A stretch of DNA of 64,000 nucleotides. Origin: a virus (taxonomy: Duplodnaviria > Heunggongvirae > Uroviricota > Caudoviricetes). Below the pieces are notes generated by a model. That model saw only the letters and a list, made by a program, of their open reading frames with translations. It did no database searches and was not told where the DNA came from. Shown here one piece after another: positions 4,009-63,968 of this stretch. The position numbers were made by a program, and so were the translations under genes. Every line of letters begins with the position of its first letter. Within the stretch, counting starts at the first letter, position 1. The DNA lies in IMG/VR virus record IMGVR_UViG_3300031994_002305, positions 1 to 64,000 of that record. One strand, written 5' to 3'.

Positions 4009-4023
4009 TCTGTATCTTTTTTT
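3988..4023 (+). terminator. Intrinsic terminator
   Basis: AAAGATACAGATT/AATCTGTATCTTT stem plus T-run. Confidence 0.8.
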
Positions 4024-4046
4024 AATTAAAATTATTCTATATAATA

Positions 4047-4077
4047 TTTGAATTTTCTTATTTTATTACTATATTAT
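4047..4077 (+). promoter_or_regulatory. Early promoter, TTTG-N19-TATATTAT class
   Basis: One of nine fixed-spacing copies; heads a small-gene array. Confidence 0.65.
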
Positions 4078-4134
4078 TTATGTATGGCAGTTAACATAAA
4101 AACTTCATTAATATTGTAATAAAAATCAAATAAT

Positions 4135-6033
4135 ATGAATAATAGAAAAAGACCACAGTACATCGAAAAACAGTTGAATGAGATTAATGATATTTTTCGT
4201 TCAATTAAGTTAAAAGATGAAGACAGATATAATAATGATTTGTTTACTTGGTTTACAAATTATTTGCTTCATAATAATTGGTATCGTGGTTATAATATGT
4301 ATGTTGATATGACTGATACTAATGGAGAATTTTTAGGTCGTGGGTTGGCTGGTCCTGATTATAAAAATAAAGATTATTATATTCAAATTTGGTAATTTGG
4401 AGAAATTAACATTATATTCAAATTTGGTAAACATGTTTAATAAAGGAAAGATTGTATTTGATCCAACTGTAGAACGTATTTATAATCAGTATATTGAGAA
4501 AACTATGTGTTCTGGTATGGTTGATGTTAAAGAGTTTTTTCAAAAGGTATTTGAAAATGGTTATCATGAAGGATATAATGATGGTCAAGCAGATGCTGTA
4601 AATCATGGTAATATGACAGTGAAAAAATGTAGATATTAAATATTAATAAACATGTTAGCTAAAAAGGTTAAAGTATCTAAAACATCTACAAAAGATCCTG
4701 AAATTATTGAAGCTTGGTTGAAAGCTGGTAAAAACCTTACAACAACTGTAATGGATGGTAAAATAAGGTTATGGTTAAAATGGGGAGTTGTTTGGATGGA
4801 AGATAGATGTTCAGTTGCAGATCCTCTTTATGATGGCCGTTGTAAACAACAGAATATTATGGAGATTGTATTTGATGAGTTCATGGAGAAATGGGTATAT
4901 GAACATAAATTTGAGTTTTCGCTAGTAGAAGATTAAATTAATATGACATTAGATAATTTTATACAATACTTAATTGAGTTAAGAGACAAACATAATGCTG
5001 GTTCTTATACAGTAATGAATAATGAATTAGTTTATGATGTTATTTGTGGAGAAATAGATAATGTATGTGGAGAACCTATACTTATGGATTCTAATCATGT
5101 TTTAGTTGATCATATAAGTAAAACATTACAAATTAATTTTGTTGATAATAATAAATGTATTTAATATGAGAAATAGAGCATATCGTAGAAATGTAGAATC
5201 ACTCCATTTGGCAAAACGTAAAAGAATTATAAATATTATTAAAGAGTGGGGATTAACTGATGAGCAGATTAAAGTTGGTCAGGATCATGCAGTTAATTGG
5301 ATGTCTAATGAATGGTGGGCAGATTCTTATAAAAAGAAATGTAATCGTAAACGCCGTCATGAATTTAAAAGAAATATAATAAAAGAAAAATATGAATAAA
5401 GAAAATTTTTACTTCGATGCTGAATATGCACATAAGATGACTGATGAAATTGCCAATGGCAAATTACAAGAAGATTTAGATAAAGTATATAAATATATTA
5501 ATTCAGCAATGAGTAAAGGTGAATATAGATGTGTAATTGACTTTGGAAATAGAACAATTTCTGACTTTCTAATTAATAAACTTAAAGCAAGTAAGTTTAA
5601 AATTGATGTATGGCATGGTGACCAAAGAGATCCAGCAAATGATTTAATTATAACTTGGTAAATTATGTGGAAACATCCTAAAGAATTAAATAAGATTGGA
5701 GATTTTTCAAAACCAATTATTTATTGGACTTGGAATAATAAGTGTAATATATTCAAAGATCTAATAGTTTTCTATGGAGGTAAACCCGAAAATGTTGGAA
5801 CTCTTGAACAACATATAGATAATTGGCTGTGGAAAGTTAAGAAATATAATATTAAGTGGTGGCAATTTGTAGAAGAATTATCTCCTTGTGGTTTAATTGG
5901 ATTCAATGGTAATAAACCTTATGGATGTGAAGAACACGAAATAACAAGAGAACTTTGGGATGCTATTGGTAATAATGATTTAGAATTACAATATAAATTA
6001 ATTTTGGAAATTACTGGGGATGAAAAGGAGTGA
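4135..6033 (+). other. Array of about 7 small hypothetical early genes
   Basis: Tightly packed + strand ORFs of 73-122 aa with no recognisable motifs. Confidence 0.7.
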
Positions 6034-21500: not shown

Positions 21501-24033
21501 TATGTAAAGAAATAAGAGCAATAGAAAAAGAATCTCAATATATTTGTGAACATTGTGGTTCTACTGAAAATGTTCATACGAGAGAAATTCATAGTTGGAT
21601 ATTTACATATTGTGATAAATGTGCAGAAGCTGAAGAAAAAAGATTTAAAGAATTATATGGGAAACTTATTTCCAGACAAAAAGAAACAAAGAAAAGAAAG
21701 AACAAAGGAACAACCTGATTATTTAAAAACAGGATTATGTTGGTATGATGATGACACAAAGTTCAAAGAATGTGGAAGACCATGGTCATATTTATGTGAC
21801 GGTAATATTCATAAATGTGCTCATTTGAAACAAAAATGGTTTGCGTCATTATCAGATAAAAACAAACAATATATTTTAGAAAATCCTAATTGTTATTGGC
21901 ACGTTGAAAATCAAAAACATAATAAGAAATAATTATGTCTATTAATAAATATCCTGTTCATTGGGAACCTATGCATACAACTTCTGATTGGATGGCAGAT
22001 TTTACTGAAAGTTTTAAGAAAATGAAAGAACGTGAAGGATACGATAGAGTTTGGAAATTAATTAAAAAGAAAAATAATTGGTAATATGAAGTGTTATTTT
22101 ATTGATTGGACAACAAATTGGGCAGATGAAATGGATATCTATTCTGCTGAGGTATTAACGGAATCAGAACTTAATGATTTTATAAAGTGGTTAAAGAAAC
22201 ATAAAAAAGACCTTGAAGACGGTATTGAATATGGTATCGGCACTAATGAAGATATTGAATTATCATATGCCGATATTAAAGAAACAATTAATTGTGCAAG
22301 AGAAATAACTGAAATTGAATATATTTCATTTAAAGCAATGTTTGAATCTTCAGTATTCGGTGATCTTTGCATTGAATCCATTATGGAAAGAGTTGAAGAT
22401 GAATATGATGACGATGACGATGATTAACTATGAAAACAAGACTATTAAAGCAAATTCGTAAAGAATCGTGGAATAAATATGAAATAAGAAACTGGAGTGA
22501 TTGTAGTGGATGTGAAGAAAAACCTTGGCATATATGTACAAGCCACAATACTGGATTAGCTTATCATGAATATGCCACCAGAGAAGAAGCAATTATTGAA
22601 GCAAAAAAACTTTGGCATGAAGTTGCTGAAAAATATCTTTGGAATCATAGAGCAGAAAGAAAACGAAATAAATATCCTTGGTAATTATGAAACATTGGCT
22701 TAACAAGTTAAAACCTGGCGATAAATTTTGGAGTAGCTCAGGATATGAAGTAGCACAATATGAAATTATTGGAAATGCTAACAATTTAAATTTTAGAATG
22801 CCAAGATTCACTTGTAAGTGTTTAACAGGTTCATATAAAAATTTAGATATTGAATTTTTTGTTAATCAATATGTATACGATACATATGAAGAAAGTTATA
22901 ATGAAGTAATTAATGATTTACAAGAAACTATAAGAAAAAGAGAAATAGAATTACATAATATTGAAGATTCATTAAAATTTCTTCACAATACATTAAATTC
23001 TACAATTGAGAAATATGAAAACTATAAATATGGACAGGAAGGCATTTAAAAAATTAGAAACTAATCCAAATTTAATAAATTTTGTTAATAGAATATTAAG
23101 TTATAATTCAATTTTCGATAATGAAACGACACGTAGTATGTTTTTTGTTTCACTAATAAGTTCAGATTGTTTAATAGATAAACATACATGTGAAGAAACA
23201 ATTGAAATTGCTGATTTTATATTAAAGAATATTAATTTATTTGTATTGGATGAAAATATTACAAAATCAGTTATAAAATATTGTAAAGATGCTAAAAAGA
23301 TAGCAAACAGAGATTTAAAAAAATTTACTGAATAATATGAAAACGGGAGCAGAATTAATTAGTGACGAACGTAAACGTCAAATAGAAGTTGAAGGGTGGT
23401 CACAAGAGCACGATAATCAACATGATATAATGGAATTTGTACAAGCTGCTAAAGCATATCTAATGATTGATAAAAATTTTATGACTCGAGTTGGAATATG
23501 GCCTTGGACAGAAGAATTCTTTAAACCAAAAGATGCAATCCGAGATTTAACACGAGCTGGTGCATTAATTGCCGCAGCAATTGATAGAATTAATCAATCT
23601 TTATAAAAATTAATATGGAAAATACATCATATTCAAATAATGGTGCTCCTATTTGGAGTGAATCAATAACACAAGTACCACAATTTAGTGAACCAACAAA
23701 AACTATGGATCAACAAATATATTTTCCATATACAATAAATGAATAATGAAGATTTAATTATAAAAGATGGTGAAGAGGATTGGACTGATTATCCTTATTT
23801 AGGTATTGGAAAAAAACCTTTTAAACACGCTAAGCCATCAGAAAATGATATTGAAAAAATAATTGGTGGATAATATGGGAATTGTATCAGATCATTATAA
23901 AGAAGAAAAATCTAAAGAAGATACTGGAATATTTACTAATCATTTAGTTTATGACGATGATGATCCTTATGTATCGCATACATTTGACCATTGGTTACGA
24001 GATTTAAATGATTATAAAAATGTAAAGATGTAA
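18587..24033 (+). other. Array of hypothetical genes and micro-ORFs, several Cys-rich or Zn-ribbon
   Basis: Includes 21233..21718 (QIKEKYG...CEHCG...CDKC Zn finger) and 23337..23606 (ERKRQIEVEGW, a common phage family). Confidence 0.6.
19774..19950 (+). CDS. 58 aa peptide with MKPYIKPQTEVI leader and Cys-rich C-terminus (not in the ORF track)
   Basis: ATG overlaps the upstream TGA. Translation: MKPYIKPQTEVIEISNCKMLCSSDYESRDYLRCDSRCKIYHICQDRRYGTTCYDKEIR. Confidence 0.65.
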   Translation: MKPYIKPQTEVIEISNCKMLCSSDYESRDYLRCDSRCKIYHICQDRRYGTTCYDKEIR

Positions 24034-50388: not shown

Positions 50389-50410
50389 TAATGTAAAAAA
50401 TCAAACAAAT

Positions 50411-50584
50411 ATGAAAGTATCTGGAAAAAAATTAATTCTTACGAATTGCTGTGTTTGGGAGGATGAGTATTATGGTTCACGTAATCGTAATGCTCGTGGA
50501 AAACGTTTTCATCATGATGGTGCAGATATTCGTAATGCCAATCGTAAGGTTCGTCGCGATAAAAGTTGGAAAGAAGAAATATAA
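50411..50584 (+). CDS. 57 aa basic early protein (not in the ORF track)
   Basis: MKVSGKKLILTNCCVWEDEYYGSRNRNARGKRFHHDGADIRNANRKVRRDKSWKEEI, directly after the promoter and an A-rich leader. Confidence 0.65.
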   Translation: MKVSGKKLILTNCCVWEDEYYGSRNRNARGKRFHHDGADIRNANRKVRRDKSWKEEI

Positions 50585-50612
50585 AAATTCTAATGAAATT
50601 ATTTATATAATA

Positions 50613-50643
50613 TTTGAATTTTTAAATAAAAGAACTATATTAT
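50613..50643 (+). promoter_or_regulatory. Early promoter, TTTG-N19-TATATTAT
   Basis: Fixed-spacing motif. Confidence 0.65.
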
Positions 50644-50669
50644 ATTTGTAATCAAACAAATTATAAAAT

Positions 50670-50957
50670 ATGACAGTTTATCAAATTACAATTCAAAGTT
50701 TTTTCAATTCGAACAATACCGATTATGCAATGCCAGTCGATAGATATACTGATGTAATTCTGTTTAGAAAAAGTGCAGATGCTGACGAAAAGTTTAACGA
50801 ACTAATTGATGAATATGTAAATAGATACTGGGAGAAGAACGGACATCAGTCAAATGAATTCCTTCATTTTGGTGCCAATAGTTGTACGGTGATTTATCAC
50901 GATAAATCAAAAACAAATAGAACATATATTTCATTAGATCCTAAAGAACTTAATTAA
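50670..50957 (+). CDS. Hypothetical early protein
   Basis: 95 aa ORF after the promoter. Confidence 0.65.
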   Translation: MTVYQITIQSFFNSNNTDYAMPVDRYTDVILFRKSADADEKFNELIDEYVNRYWEKNGHQSNEFLHFGANSCTVIYHDKSKTNRTYISLDPKELN

Positions 50958-51029
50958 AATATGAATAATAAGAATAAGCCACCACCTGTTTAAATATCAT
51001 ATTTTGAATTTAACATTACATATAAATAA

Positions 51030-51520
51030 AAAAACCAATAGAAGACGTAGTAACATCTCAGCCGCGTGGTTTTATCCAATAATGGTTTTTGACAAGGCGC
51101 AAACAAGTCCACGACTATGGTAAGAGACCGACCGATTTAAGTTAAATAGAAGGGTTAATTAATATAAATGGGAGAGCGACGCGGAAACTGCTCAGAACGT
51201 CCGCACAAAAATATGGGGGATTCTGAATAATGAAGATTAGAGATTCTACCTTTTAATTTTAAATGAAACATATATAATTAATGGTTCTAAAAGATAATAC
51301 CAGACAAATATGTTCTGCTTCATTCCGTTTCGATTAATACTCGAATAAAGAAGATAAATTATATTTGAAACTCATCTCAGATTTAAACGTATCTGACACG
51401 CTGACGGACAGTGGAAGAAACATGAGAAAATATAATTGTGAATATATAATCTGCATGGTGATATGGTAGTCAAGTTATTTGAAGAACCAATCAAATATTG
51501 AGGAACTCAGGTTCCTCTTT
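51030..51520 (+). ncRNA. Candidate large structured non-coding RNA (unclassified)
   Basis: ORF-free, GC-enriched stretch with many nested helices and three loop-mediated pairings, ending in a terminator. G-U pairs favour the + strand. Confidence 0.6.
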
Positions 51521-51525
51521 ATTTG
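51500..51525 (+). terminator. Intrinsic terminator closing the ncRNA candidate
   Basis: GAGGAAC-TCAG-GTTCCTC-TTTATTT. Confidence 0.8.
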
Positions 51526-51589
51526 TTTCTAGAAATTTTATAAATAAAACAATAAAATTTCTATATTAATATAAATAAAATTCTTATTA

Positions 51590-51733
51590 ATGAAAAAAAT
51601 AAAATATTTTCTTGGAGAAATAATGTATTGGTTATTTATACCTTTATCTTTGTTTTTTCTTGTTATAATTGAAATATTTAATATTTTATACAATTTTTTT
51701 TATAATTTGATTAAGTTTAGAAAAATATCATAA
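51590..51733 (+). CDS. 47 aa single-pass membrane peptide (not in the ORF track)
   Basis: MKKIKYFLGEIMYWLFIPLSLFFLVIIEIFNILYNFFYNLIKFRKIS. Confidence 0.45.
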   Translation: MKKIKYFLGEIMYWLFIPLSLFFLVIIEIFNILYNFFYNLIKFRKIS

Positions 51734-51741
51734 TATAGTAT

Positions 51742-52602
51742 ATGACTATTGATATAAAAGGACATTCTGGATGTAATATTGATATTATTGAAGAAGACGG
51801 TCATTTATATGTTAAAAAATCTACTAAAGATCCAAAATATAAAACAAGATTAACTTTACAAGGTAATAAGCAAAGTAATGATATGTGTTTGTGTGGGTCT
51901 ATTACAAATCCACATATATATCGTACTGAAGTAAATGATGATGAATGTTTTATTTTGATGGATTATATTTATGCCAAGAATTTTATAGATTATTTTGAAC
52001 ATGCTTCTGCTTCTGACATAGATCATTTCATTAATACATTTGTTATATATATAAAAACAGAATTAGGTAAATGTACTAAAGAAAAAGTTAAAAAAGAAAT
52101 TTTTGTTAATAAATTTAATTCTGTTGTTGAAAACTGTAAAAAGAATGAATTGACTAGAGATAACAATAGAGTTAAAATGATTTTAAATGATTGCAAAAAA
52201 GTATTTGATAATATGCCTGAAGAGATAATAATGCCTGTAGGTGTATGTCATGGTGATTTGACATTTTCAAATATTTTATTTACATCAAATAGTTTTTACT
52301 TTATAGATTATTTAGATTCATTTATTGAAACACCAATTCAAGATATTGTTAAATTAAGACAAGATACAAAATATTTTTGGTCTACTATGATGTATACTAA
52401 AAAATATGATATTGTACGTCTTAATATGATATTTAAATATATTGATAATAGATTAGTTGAAGAGTTTGGAGATATAGAAGATTATTTCAATAATTATGAT
52501 AGACTTCAACTAATGAATATTCTTAGAATTCTTCCTTATGTTAAAGAAGAGAAAGTTCGTGATTTTGTTTTAAATATATTACAATCATTGCCTAAATATT
52601 AA
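51742..52602 (+). CDS. APH/choline-kinase-like phosphotransferase (candidate sugar kinase)
   Basis: Motifs GHSG, VKK, MDYI, CHGDLTFSNIL, FID and DIVKLRQD. Confidence 0.82.
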   Translation: MTIDIKGHSGCNIDIIEEDGHLYVKKSTKDPKYKTRLTLQGNKQSNDMCLCGSITNPHIYRTEVNDDECFILMDYIYAKNFIDYFEHASASDIDHFINTFVIYIKTELGKCTKEKVKKEIFVNKFNSVVENCKKNELTRDNNRVKMILNDCKKVFDNMPEEIIMPVGVCHGDLTFSNILFTSNSFYFIDYLDSFIETPIQDIVKLRQDTKYFWSTMMYTKKYDIVRLNMIFKYIDNRLVEEFGDIEDYFNNYDRLQLMNILRILPYVKEEKVRDFVLNILQSLPKY

Positions 52603-62252: not shown

Positions 62253-63968
62253 AGAAAAAGAAATCTTAGAGAATCTTAGAAAATTAATTTCTAAGAAACG
62301 TAATGAATATATTGAAGTAATGCAACAGCATGAAACTGATTCACCTTATTATAATTATTGCAGAGGCAAGAAAGATATGTTGGAAGATATTTTAGGTTTA
62401 GTTAATCAATTCTAATTAATATGGAAGATAATAAGAAAAAGAAAGATAATGAAGGATTTGGATTATATTTGAATCATGAAGGACTTAATGTTGGTATTGG
62501 GTTAGGTAGCGGTATTTTCTTAGATAGTGATGGTTTACATTATGGTGGATTGAAACTTTAATTATGAAAAAAGATTTTTTAGTTATTTTAGGAATAATAT
62601 TTATGCTTTCATTACCATTTATTGGGTGTAAAATGGATGAAAAAACTAAAATAAATGCGTGTCCATGGGAATTAACACCACAAGAATATTACGATAATGC
62701 AATACAACACAATGTGATTACAGATAGTGCTGGACATACATTAATATTTAATGAATTAGGTATTCGTGGTTCTAAAAATTATGCGTTTTCAATCGAACAT
62801 TCACCTGAATGTAAAAAATGTTGTGAAATTTATGATTAAAGAATATATTAATCTTGATAATTGTTCGGAGTTTGAACAATTTATGCTTTATATTATGTGT
62901 TATTTAAAAGAAGATGATCTTCGTAAAGAGATGAACGAAGATAAAATCTCTTTTATGCCACTTGGTGAAATGGATCATTATTGTAGATTTGGAATTGACT
63001 GGAGTAAATCAAAATTCCAAGATCTTATTAATTTAGAAGATAATGATCCACGTTGGAAAATTGAAAACAAATTTCAAGAAGTAGCAATTAAAGCAAAGGA
63101 ATTATATAACGCAATAGAAAAAAATAGATAATGGAAGAAGATTTGCATTCGAAAAGTTACGAAGATCGTATTAAAGATATTAAAGATAATCTTTATGTTG
63201 GCGGTGGTGCAGCTCAAGCATCATTTTTATTAGCAGCATTAATGAGTCCATATAATAAAGAATTTGGACAGTCTGATATAGATGTTGCAGATGTATTAAA
63301 TACAATATCACAGCAAATACGGTCATTACGAAGAACTGTAAAAGATGGAGGTATTATACCTATTAAGACATTCGAAAGCCTTGGTGTTTTTCAACAGCAT
63401 AATGCATATGCATGTCTTGATAAAGATTTGAAATTCTGTGTTAGACATTATGGAGAAGACGATTGGAAAGATATTCTTTACGTATTTCCATATATGAATT
63501 GTACAACAGCATATGATATAACTTTTAAATACGATAATATACATTCAAGCAATATATAATATGAAAGCTAAAGATTTTAGAAATGTATTATACTTTATGT
63601 GCAATAAATGGAGTAAAGGTGAAAGTAATTTGATATTCAATGGCACAGATTTTGATCCTGATAAATGGCAATATTCATTAGGCTGGCATATTTGGAATAA
63701 ATGGATTGAATATTGTGAAAATCATCATGGCTCACTTGATTGTATTACTGCATTTATTCTTGAAGGATTGGATGATGAAAGTTTACAAAATTTAATTGAT
63801 AGATCACAAGAATATTATAATAAATGATTTATATTAAAGAAACAGACAAGTTAAAATGCTCTAAATGTGGATCTGAACATATATATATTAAATCAGGTAT
63901 GATGTCTGATTTATATATATGTTTAGATTGTGGACATGAATCAAGAGATATAAAAAATTTATATAATA

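Follow-up and report, generated by a model that had tools for sequence, protein, structure and literature searches.

Background

The arrest peptides of the RAPP/RAG-P type (ApdA, ApdP, ApcA and SecM) act in cis on the ribosome that translates them, through the motifs R-A-P|P or R-A-G|P; each forms the C-terminal part of an exported protein 50-170 residues long, and they regulate Sec/YidC genes and are freed by a pulling force (PMC10951233, PMC7897499). In this work we analyzed a locus at 51030-51520 of a 64,000-nt window, that is, positions 1-64,000 of the 376-kb IMG/VR virus record IMGVR_UViG_3300031994_002305 (Caudoviricetes; 98% complete according to CheckV, 27% GC), for which a reading of the letters alone, hereafter the original prediction, had proposed a pseudoknotted non-coding RNA (ncRNA) of ~490 nt. 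We conclude that the feature is real and undescribed, and that its universal core, a module named M1, links a covarying fold with a conserved gene that encodes a heptapeptide and carries an arrest-like motif. As in the RAPP/RAG-P peptides an Arg stands three residues before the incoming Pro, here in R-A-S|P or R-D-R|P; in contrast to them the whole open reading frame (ORF) has 6-9 codons, is phage-borne, fused to a conserved RNA fold and repeated, the product would be cytosolic, S or R precedes the Pro, and the arrest is a predicted one.

Three consecutive prolines are the classic stall that depends on elongation factor P (EF-P), and mgtP, in the Salmonella mgtCBR leader, is reportedly a polyproline leader ORF that is read out through this factor. 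The relation of EF-P to transcription-translation coupling is the subject of PMC5021804. In polyproline leaders pausing alters the fate of the downstream RNA. The locus shares with them a short upstream ORF, three consecutive Pro codons and a long structured leader, and differs in belonging to a phage and not to a cellular operon, in having a second mini-ORF type that is not polyproline, and in having neither a defined regulated gene nor a phage EF-P gene. Leader-peptide attenuators (trpL, hisL, pheL, pyrL and the erm/cat leaders) also place mini-ORFs that contain special codons ahead of RNA structures and an intrinsic terminator, an arrangement approached in one homologous locus (L135) in which a terminator arm overlaps the end of the ORF. 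In contrast, the element presented here has three different ORFs in series, covarying folds 5' of each and a pseudoknotted domain of 215 nt, and in many lineages there is nothing downstream to regulate.

Lambda bar and other toxic minigenes, which sequester tRNA through peptidyl-tRNA drop-off (PMC2490762), are phage-borne ORFs only a few codons long, in some of which AGA occurs near the start, and their effect lies in translation and not in the product; the locus would share these traits, but the bar minigenes have 2 codons and no conserved peptide, whereas here the peptide is selected and embedded in conserved RNA structure. The ROOL and GOLLD RNAs (Rfam; cryo-EM in bioRxiv 10.1101/2024.12.08.627333), with which the original prediction had compared the locus, are also several hundred nt long, have many tertiary contacts and are associated with phages and the rumen. 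The locus shares these traits, but it has no match to their covariance models, is a mosaic of separable modules and contains mini-ORFs that are probably translated. With transfer-messenger RNA (tmRNA) it has in common a pseudoknot directly 5' of a short reading frame; it differs in having no tRNA-like domain, AUG starts, a Shine-Dalgarno-like site for one of the frames, and three frames instead of one.

Results and discussion

M1 couples a covarying fold to a heptapeptide gene

Homologues of the element were found in ~50 rumen/gut phage contigs that represent 35 distinct sequences; the metagenome scan, which used a pattern from the best-conserved block, returned 119 stretches, ~50 of them true homologues. 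By alignment the element consists of four modules, and only M1 (~110 nt, 51030-51138, + strand) is common to every homologue. A covariance model (R1), built from ten M1 sequences and a hand-drawn structure, scores the M1 of this phage with 75.5 bits (E 1e-17), and with matches taken at E <=1e-5 it recovers 38 M1 matches in 34 loci.

From its 5' end M1 includes the sequence AAAAACCAAU, the hairpin P1, the helix P2 around GGUUUU-P3-UUUU, the sequence CAAAC, the putative hairpin P4 with an AUG, and mini-ORF 1. In P1 (51042-51057, +) AGACG 51042-46 pairs with CAUCU 51053-57 around the conserved loop UAGUAA 51047-52. The P2/P3 region (51061-51098, +) is formed by P2 (51061-67/51092-98), which has an internal 2x2 mismatch, P3 (CCA 51076-78/UGG 51083-85) and two U-rich strands. 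P1 and P2 covary: in the M1 alignment 88% of the cells are paired, against 24-41% in slid controls, and 13/17 pairs are changed on both sides, among them 6/7 pairs of P1 (helix 1) and 6/7 of P2 (helix 2). The alignment was fitted to the R1 model; nonetheless, the stem variants are plain in the raw sequences, where P2 appears as GTGGA/TCCAC, CTGAA/TTCAG, CTGAG/CTCAG, GACTGA/TCAGTC, GATTGA/TCAATC, GGCTC/GAGCC or GGCAGA/TCTGCC. The second P1 pair from the loop is C.A in this phage and U.G in most relatives; since U.G pairs, the terminator and the ORF frames fit one strand only, the element is assigned to the + strand. A hairpin P4 (51107-51121, +; G-U-CCA/UGG-(C/U)), with the start codon of mini-ORF 1 in its 3' arm, may also form: its stem is invariant, with no covariation, its loop varies in length and sequence (CGACUA, UAUAUGAA, GAAAUUA), and GUCC...GGC is retained even where the AUG shifts by one codon. 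This region had originally been folded otherwise, with TCTC 51056-59/GAGA 51124-27 enclosing CGTGG 51065-69/CCACG 51109-13. In two of the four sequence classes both pairings are impossible; TCTC is part of the covarying P1, GAGA belongs to codons 3-4 of mini-ORF 1, and the CGTGG region is part of P2.

Mini-ORF 1 (51117-51140, +) lies inside M1 and reads ATG GTA AGA GAC CGA CCG ATT TAA, that is MVRDRPI*. It is intact in 35/35 distinct M1 sequences, and the 'variable pentamer' that follows the invariant AUGGCAAGAG of M1 is a pair of its codons. The encoded pattern is M-[A/V]-R-[D/A]-[R/S]-P, then 0-3 residues and the stop. All four Pro codons are used, Ser is encoded by TCA, TCC, TCG, AGT or AGC, and Arg by AGA, CGA or CGT; variation at R, P and S is synonymous only. 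Selection therefore acts on the peptide, because the switch of Ser between TCN and AGY is inexplicable by RNA pairing. R and P are invariant, with synonymous codon variation, in the 35 copies of mini-ORF 1 and in 24 upstream ORFs of the RDRP type. Set against the RAPP/RAG-P motif, mini-ORF 1 has the Arg at -2 and an incoming Pro (A-site), but it departs from Ala at -1 and Pro/Gly at 0: position -1 is A (17) or D (18), and position 0 is S (18) or R (17).

Two more mini-genes flank this module

In every locus a further mini-ORF, of the ..NKPPP.. or the ..RDRP type according to lineage and with synonymous variation, is located ~120 nt 5' of the GGUUUU anchor of M1. In this phage it is mini-ORF 0 (50961-50993, +; ATG AAT AAT AAG AAT AAG CCA CCA CCT GTT TAA = MNNKNKPPPV*), of the polyproline type, which begins 4 nt after the stop codon of a 95-aa ORF (50670-50957). 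Its three consecutive Pro codons, CCA CCA CCT at 50979-50987, have the sequence of an EF-P-dependent stall motif and would act as such on translation. In the 19 homologous ORFs of the ..NKPPP.. type the Pro codons are free at the third position, and PPP is kept in 16/19, the others having PTP, HPSV or HPPV. Mini-ORF 2 (51230-51256, +; ATG AAG ATT AGA GAT TCT ACC TTT TAA = MKIRDSTF*) accounts for 20 invariant nucleotides 3' of the pseudoknot, and is preceded by a Shine-Dalgarno-like GGGGG(A) (51215-20, +) that is GGAGG in relatives; in its codons 1-7, compared in 7 sequences, all four kinds of change are synonymous (ATT/ATC, AGA/CGA, TCT/TCG, ACC/ACT). In the 376-kb genome the only mini-ORFs that bear these motifs are these three, all within 300 nt, as against 0-1 in shuffled genomes.

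The three mini-ORFs are under selection at the amino-acid level, and the element is consequently not the pure ncRNA that had been proposed. The stretch was rightly singled out as the largest without ORFs: in a greedy ORF call of the window, 50958-51537 (580 nt) has no ORF >=50 aa, and the next-largest such stretches, 21719-22085, 62416-62765 and 4009-4339, have 367, 350 and 331 nt, with a GC content of 0.21-0.28. It is also GC-richer than other intergenic DNA, as had been claimed (0.32-0.34, and 0.385 for 51030-51260, against 0.23 for all intergenic DNA), and no longer hidden ORF appears in it under the alternative codes TAG=Q or TGA=W. 'ORF-free' thus holds for ORFs of >=50 aa; the locus at 51030-51520 has two conserved mini-ORFs inside and a third just upstream.

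The pseudoknot, the 3' domain and the terminator are conserved folds

All the pairings listed in the original prediction are present at the coordinates it gives, and four of its five pairing groups, loop-mediated long-range pairings included, are backed by covariation; the exception is the two 5' pairings discussed above. Module M2 (51174-51256) includes a pseudoknot and mini-ORF 2. The H-type pseudoknot (51174-51204, +) is formed by S1, GAGC 51174-77/GCUC 51190-93, and S2, GCGGA 51181-85/UCCGC 51200-04; when the window is compared with six relatives, 4/9 pairs are changed on both sides and 98% of the cells are paired, against 25-73% in slid controls.

The core of the 3' domain (51282-51497, +) is closed by a long-range helix, 51282-88/51483-89, that is crossed by the hairpin 51476-82/51491-97. 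The core itself pairs UACCA 51298-302 with UGGUA 51464-68, and 51308-15 with 51440-47, and holds a three-way insert (51318-21/51350-53, 51329-33/51341-45, 51357-66/51428-37, 51371-75/51422-26 and 51377-82/51391-96), with a loop-loop pairing between 51324-28 and 51404-08. These helices change in a compensated manner: CTCAT/ATGAG has 4/5 pairs changed on both sides, TCAGAT/ATCTGA becomes TCGGGT/ACCCGA in homologues, the loop-loop pairing TCCGT/ACGGA becomes TCGGT/ACCGA, and UACCA/UGGUA is UACCG/CGGUA in two distant members (L052 and L161). The long-range helix TGGTTCT/AGAACCA is replaced by TGGATTC/GAATCCA, TGGGTTC/GAACCCA, AATTTCC/GGAAATT and others, and its distance from the core is constant. 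On the MAFFT alignment A8 the copies of the window are shifted by one column, so that counts come out too low for the long-range helix, the loop-loop pairing and the TCAGAT hairpin; these three were checked sequence by sequence. The domain occurs in two forms, a short one, in which the core strands are joined by 3 nt, and a long one, present in this phage, with the ~150-nt three-way insert. In four short-form loci (L088, L097, L158 and L165) a core strand is UGCAUGCA, a perfect palindrome of 8 nt that could mediate RNA-RNA dimerization; the long form has CUGCAUGG.

An intrinsic terminator (51500-51527, +) follows, as had been noted, with the stem-loop GAGGAAC-UCAG-GUUCCUC (51500-51517) and then UUUAUUUGUUU. 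Its stem covaries among homologues, where it appears as AGGUACC/GGUACCU, GGCAGCC/GGCUGCC, GAGGACUC/GAGUCCUC or GAGGAAUC../..GAUUCCUC, each self-complementary, so that the GC-rich hairpin, the U-run and the compensatory change of a Rho-independent terminator are all found. Compared with shuffled controls, the region folds somewhat better than expected (z = -2.27 for the + strand, -3.10 for the - strand), but the excess is mild and the + strand is no better than the - strand, so that folding energy carries little weight by itself.

The element matches no listed RNA family

The original prediction reported no match to a known family, and Rfam 15 gives none for the whole window at gathering thresholds, neither to the families proposed for checking with Infernal (ROOL, GOLLD, HEARO, tmRNA, RNase P, group I/II introns) nor to riboswitches. 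At E <=10, Rfam yielded only chance matches for 50900-51750 and five homologous loci, many of those in the loci falling over terminator regions. Searches of the genome with RF00010 and RF00177 returned nothing, and ARAGORN found no tRNA or tmRNA in the window. Apparent resemblances to RNase P, purine riboswitches, the SRP Alu domain and group I introns (AAGUCC, GGUAAGAG, GACUAUGG, GAGAUA-UGGU and GCUGACGGACA) had no covariance-model support, and no split host gene flanks the element. Mimicry of rRNA domains was also discarded, since Smith-Waterman comparisons of M1, M2 and M3/M4 with the 16S, 23S and 5S rRNAs of E. coli were within shuffle expectation (z -1.4 to 1.0); the likeness of CAAGAG...AUCGAC to helix 89 of the 23S rRNA is due to the codons of mini-ORF 1.

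A modular family in gut and rumen phages

The ORF-free stretch is retained at the same place in two IMG/VR megaphages. Relatives of the neighboring kinase gene number more than 1500 in ENA and Logan assemblies from animal guts, and their contigs yielded more copies of the RNA. No match was obtained in GenBank phages by blastn with the RNA of the window or with an M1 array of the Bacteroidota type, and scans of IMG/VR for two exact blocks of 17-19 nt gave only chance matches beyond the two known relatives. A scan of 185,579 prokaryote species genomes for AAGTCCACNACTATGGCANGAG found no match either; therefore the element is not copied, at the sequence level, from a host RNA, and is not a common prophage element. 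It is a member of an undescribed RNA family of rumen/gut megaphages and of phages with promoters of the Bacteroidota type.

What had been described as one ncRNA of ~490 nt is indeed a conserved, pseudoknotted + strand element of ~0.5 kb with a terminator, but it is a modular mosaic and not an indivisible unit. Some relatives have the pseudoknot module and the 3' domain, whereas in others these are missing or exchanged; M2 is found in seven loci and is absent or replaced elsewhere. Contigs of the Bacteroidota type (with TAnnTTTG-type promoters) have no 3' domain and carry two tandem M1 plus one to three truncated units, the latter being further copies of the MARASP or MARDRP gene; array contigs (L054, L069, L083, L111, L121, L150 and L164) hold up to six mini-ORFs within ~600 nt. 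A conserved ORF of ~112 aa (MVTLRVYDS..) of no known family lies directly 3' of the array in L054, L069 and L121, and has relatives elsewhere in the locus in L111 and L164. M1 is single-copy in the 376-kb genome, and each of two other megaphage records has one full copy.

At least four unrelated gene neighborhoods host the RNA, and no neighboring protein that could be its partner spans the different contexts. Compared with Pfam and PHROG, the neighboring proteins belong to no family except for a helicase in one context and the DUF4842 and zinc ribbon hits of two L162 proteins. In one lineage, represented by the ENA/Logan contigs L037-L039, an epimerase gene is directly followed by the kinase gene, with none of the small ORFs, the mini-ORFs or the RNA between them; from this joint absence the block behaves as an insertable cassette. 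In other contigs the same epimerase-kinase slot holds an Endonuclease_NS gene, a DUF4422 gene or a gene of the Cthe_2159 family (637 aa).

RNA libraries and translation genes of the phage

The stretch occurs in sequencing runs from sheep and cattle gut. An exact contig of 786 nt over 50670-51455 was found in metatranscriptome runs, in two RNA libraries of one sheep-gut sample, along with exact pieces over 50676-51168 and 51281-51412; a second study, with two bovine size-fractionated RNA libraries, contributes pieces from relatives. They suggest, but weakly, that the region is transcribed, perhaps jointly with the 95-aa ORF on its 5' side, because the data are contigs and the libraries may contain DNA. 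Differences in contig depth are not an expression measure. In the bovine runs X12 and X19, contigs of relatives have a depth of ~105-110 over the region of a 57-aa ORF (50410-50576 of the window), and a 125-nt contig over part of the 3' domain (51320-51365) has ~670, versus 2-6 for its neighbors. In run X4, adapter-like letters (CGGAAGAGCGTCGT; ACGTGTGCTCTTCCGATCT) are joined at 51133-51136, in the Pro codon of mini-ORF 1, and at 51281, before the closing helix; contigs cannot reveal RNA ends, and these joins support no conclusion. If raw reads confirmed the ends, the former would fit an A-site cleavage at a Pro pause and the latter a processing site.

In the whole genome ARAGORN predicts 65 tRNAs, including two tRNA-Pro, four tRNA-Arg and one with the amber-reading anticodon CUA at 347128-347199. 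The phage also has a tmRNA at 103338-103744 of the genome, with the tag ANDELVDDAWLNSWEYRMAA, and an ORF with an RF-1 domain at 308909-309154 (209-aa open frame); no EF-P gene was found in the phage genome. The amber tRNA, the tmRNA, the tRNAs and the RF-1-domain ORF suggest TAG recoding and a heavy control of translation.

A translation-sensing RNA as the preferred reading

The motifs R-[D/A]-[R/S]-P and PPP resemble the RAPP/RAG-P and polyproline stalling signals. Since the unrelated KPPP and RDRP types fill one slot upstream of M1, the property they share would be a proline that is hard to add; and M1 can be read as an RNA fold plus an arrest-type micro-gene because PPP stalls and R-A-S-P/R-D-R-P parallel RAP-P/RAG-P. 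Our preferred reading, put forward tentatively and at somewhat less than an even chance, is that the element is an RNA that engages ribosomes and serves as a sensor or switch of the translation state; we infer the translation of the mini-genes, the pausing and any consequence of it. Ribosomes would load onto the mini-genes and pause where Pro must join after R-x-x, or inside P-P-P, and the paused ribosome would cover ~30 nt beside the folded modules. Whether the pause occurs and how long it lasts would depend on Pro-tRNA, on EF-P or on how much translation capacity the infected cell has in general, and occupancy would in turn set the RNA structures that are formed, the continuation of transcription or processing, and the stability of the RNA. 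The output could be the control of read-through in cis, or the release or protection of the folded 3' domain. In favor of a switch in cis, the 5' arm of the L135 terminator overlaps the last codons of mini-ORF 1, the AUG of mini-ORF 1 lies inside the putative P4 hairpin, and at least four long-form loci have a kinase operon on the 3' side of the RNA, in the same orientation. By eye, small hairpins span the stop codon of the PPP-ORF in several lineages. The reading as a whole draws on the covarying folds, the selection on the frames, the confinement of the motifs to this locus, the translation genes of the phage and, weakly, the RNA-library contigs.

Several observations weigh against this reading. 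The peptides, of 6-8 residues, are far shorter than the proven RAPP/SecM arrest peptides, the residue before Pro is S or R and never P or G, and mini-ORF 2 has Thr where the others have Pro. Mini-ORFs 0 and 1 have no Shine-Dalgarno sequence, which is expected in a Bacteroidota host, yet the GGAGG before mini-ORF 2 would then be odd. As an anti-terminator for 51500-51517, or as a competition between mini-ORF 2 and the closing helix, only partial and unconserved complementarity was seen by eye. A cis-regulatory output is doubtful: the next gene is convergent in at least nine lineages, the kinase gene has a promoter-like site of its own (51678-51706), the M1 array of L111 and L083 runs into a terminator and then a promoter, and the element thereby departs from an attenuator, which by definition has a regulated gene directly downstream on the same strand. 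In addition, the 3' domain is far more ornate than an attenuator requires, and tandem arrays of 2-6 units suit a dosage effect or a trans-acting role better than a switch. A bolder form of the idea, which we regard as rather unlikely, is that M1 is a new kind of genetic unit, a fold plus an arrest-type micro-gene that parks a ribosome, free-standing, single or arrayed, and open to add-on domains; such a device would read or manipulate host translation (proline incorporation, EF-P, rescue factors) independently of the neighboring genes.

Arrays and autonomy are better accounted for if the RNA acts in trans as a decoy or sponge, an abundant early transcript that traps ribosomes or a limiting component and retunes host translation for the phage. 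The trapped component could be peptidyl-tRNA(Pro/Arg), through drop-off as in lambda bar, EF-P, or release and rescue factors, with the folded modules holding the ribosome. This is unlikely, but it stays viable because the units are autonomous and repeated: they have their own terminator, occur mostly as one copy per megaphage in those unrelated neighborhoods, and in some phages form sponge-like tandem arrays of 2-6 near-identical copies. The U-rich strands immediately 5' of mini-ORF 1, and the tmRNA, the many tRNAs (tRNA-Pro and tRNA-Arg among them) and the RF-1-domain protein of the phage would also fit, as would the toxic minigenes of 3-8 codons with AGA that act via tRNA sequestration (PMC2490762). 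However, a single RNA species would have to be very abundant, and the contig depth in RNA libraries, which is not a valid measure, is modestly above that of the flanks; AGA is not rare in genomes of 27% GC, nothing demonstrates drop-off or trapping, and the ornate 3' domain and the pseudoknot are left unexplained. The amino-acid-level selection, together with repeated near-identical genes that would boost the yield, could instead mean that the micro-peptides MARDRP(I), MARASP(K), MKIRDST(N) and MNNKNKPPPV act as free products, for instance by binding the ribosome or an enzyme, the folds being elements of expression or stability. We consider this quite improbable, given that KPPP and RDRP are interchangeable in one slot, which points to a property of translation and not to a specific target, that the residues after Pro and before Arg vary freely, that free hexapeptides are short-lived in cells, and that the RNA folds are conserved beyond the needs of simple expression signals.

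Other alternatives center on the RNA fold. The 3' domain (51282-51497) with its terminator has the closing helix, the multi-way junction, the loop-loop contact and the conserved unpaired GACA, UGCAUGG.GAUA and CAAGUUAUUUGA that would be expected of a riboswitch-type aptamer, here for a nucleotide or hypermodification metabolite that gates read-through into the kinase/glycosyltransferase genes. The same-strand kinase operon follows in at least four long-form loci (the window, L044, L047 and L060), loci with a convergent next gene carry the short form, and in our reading GAAGAAC, which lies partly ahead of and partly within the 3' strand of the closing helix, could compete for the 3' arm of the terminator that directly follows the domain. 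Nevertheless, the same core is found ahead of a helicase gene (L052 and L161) and of convergent genes, L047 does not retain the proposed anti-terminator pairing, the kinase gene is served by a promoter-like site of its own, Rfam has no riboswitch match, and M1 and the mini-ORFs would be unexplained, all of which makes an aptamer distinctly improbable. Size, several tertiary pairings, an origin in phages from rumen samples and the lack of a known family, in addition to a short-form palindrome (UGCAUGCA) that could allow self-association, are what a purely non-coding ornate RNA of the ROOL/GOLLD kind would show, with small frames that are incidental; this is very improbable in view of the codon-level evidence for selection on all three frames, the absence of a ROOL or GOLLD match in Rfam and the division into modules that occur separately.

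Should ribosomes stall on the R-x-x-P and PPP mini-genes, as in the reading preferred here, RAPP/SecM-like arrest would have in them its shortest natural examples, and its first that are fused to a dedicated RNA fold; with 110 nt and a heptapeptide, the unit is of a size that suits toeprinting and cryo-EM studies of the way in which very short nascent chains silence the peptidyl-transferase center. The unlisted family itself is unusually well supported, with covariation in the 38 M1 matches from 34 loci and a modular build that can be dissected. GC-rich structured 'ORF-free' stretches of phages can conceal genes of 6-10 codons under strict selection, and ncRNA candidates should therefore be checked for them. 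The locus also adds to the evidence that giant gut/rumen phages carry dense toolkits against host translation (tRNAs, tmRNA and suppressor tRNA).

Genomic setting of the locus

The RNA is encoded between the 95-aa ORF mentioned above and an APH-like kinase gene (51742-52602), in a cluster that includes a thymidylate-synthase-like enzyme, a nucleotidyltransferase, a HAD phosphatase, an SDR epimerase and a TET-associated glycosyltransferase. Its placement in a DNA-modification cluster is correct by position, but the functional link is only positional, considering the unrelated neighborhoods found in other phages. The promoter-like site at 51678-51706 is located ahead of the kinase gene. Between the RNA terminator and this gene there is a small hydrophobic ORF (51590-51733, +; ATG probably at 51624; MYWLFIPLSLFFLVIIEIFNILYNFFYNLIKFRKIS), which is probably a real gene for a membrane micro-protein because a similar frame (..FFLIIVELFDIIYNFFYNIIKFRKLK) is present at the same place in L047. 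Just 5' of the small ORFs, an AT-rich element of ~75 nt (50597-50673 of the window, +) is repeated within and between related megaphages with 79-88% identity (L003 5083-5144 and 5910-5989; L004 5086-5150), and may serve the small-ORF genes as a common promoter or leader.

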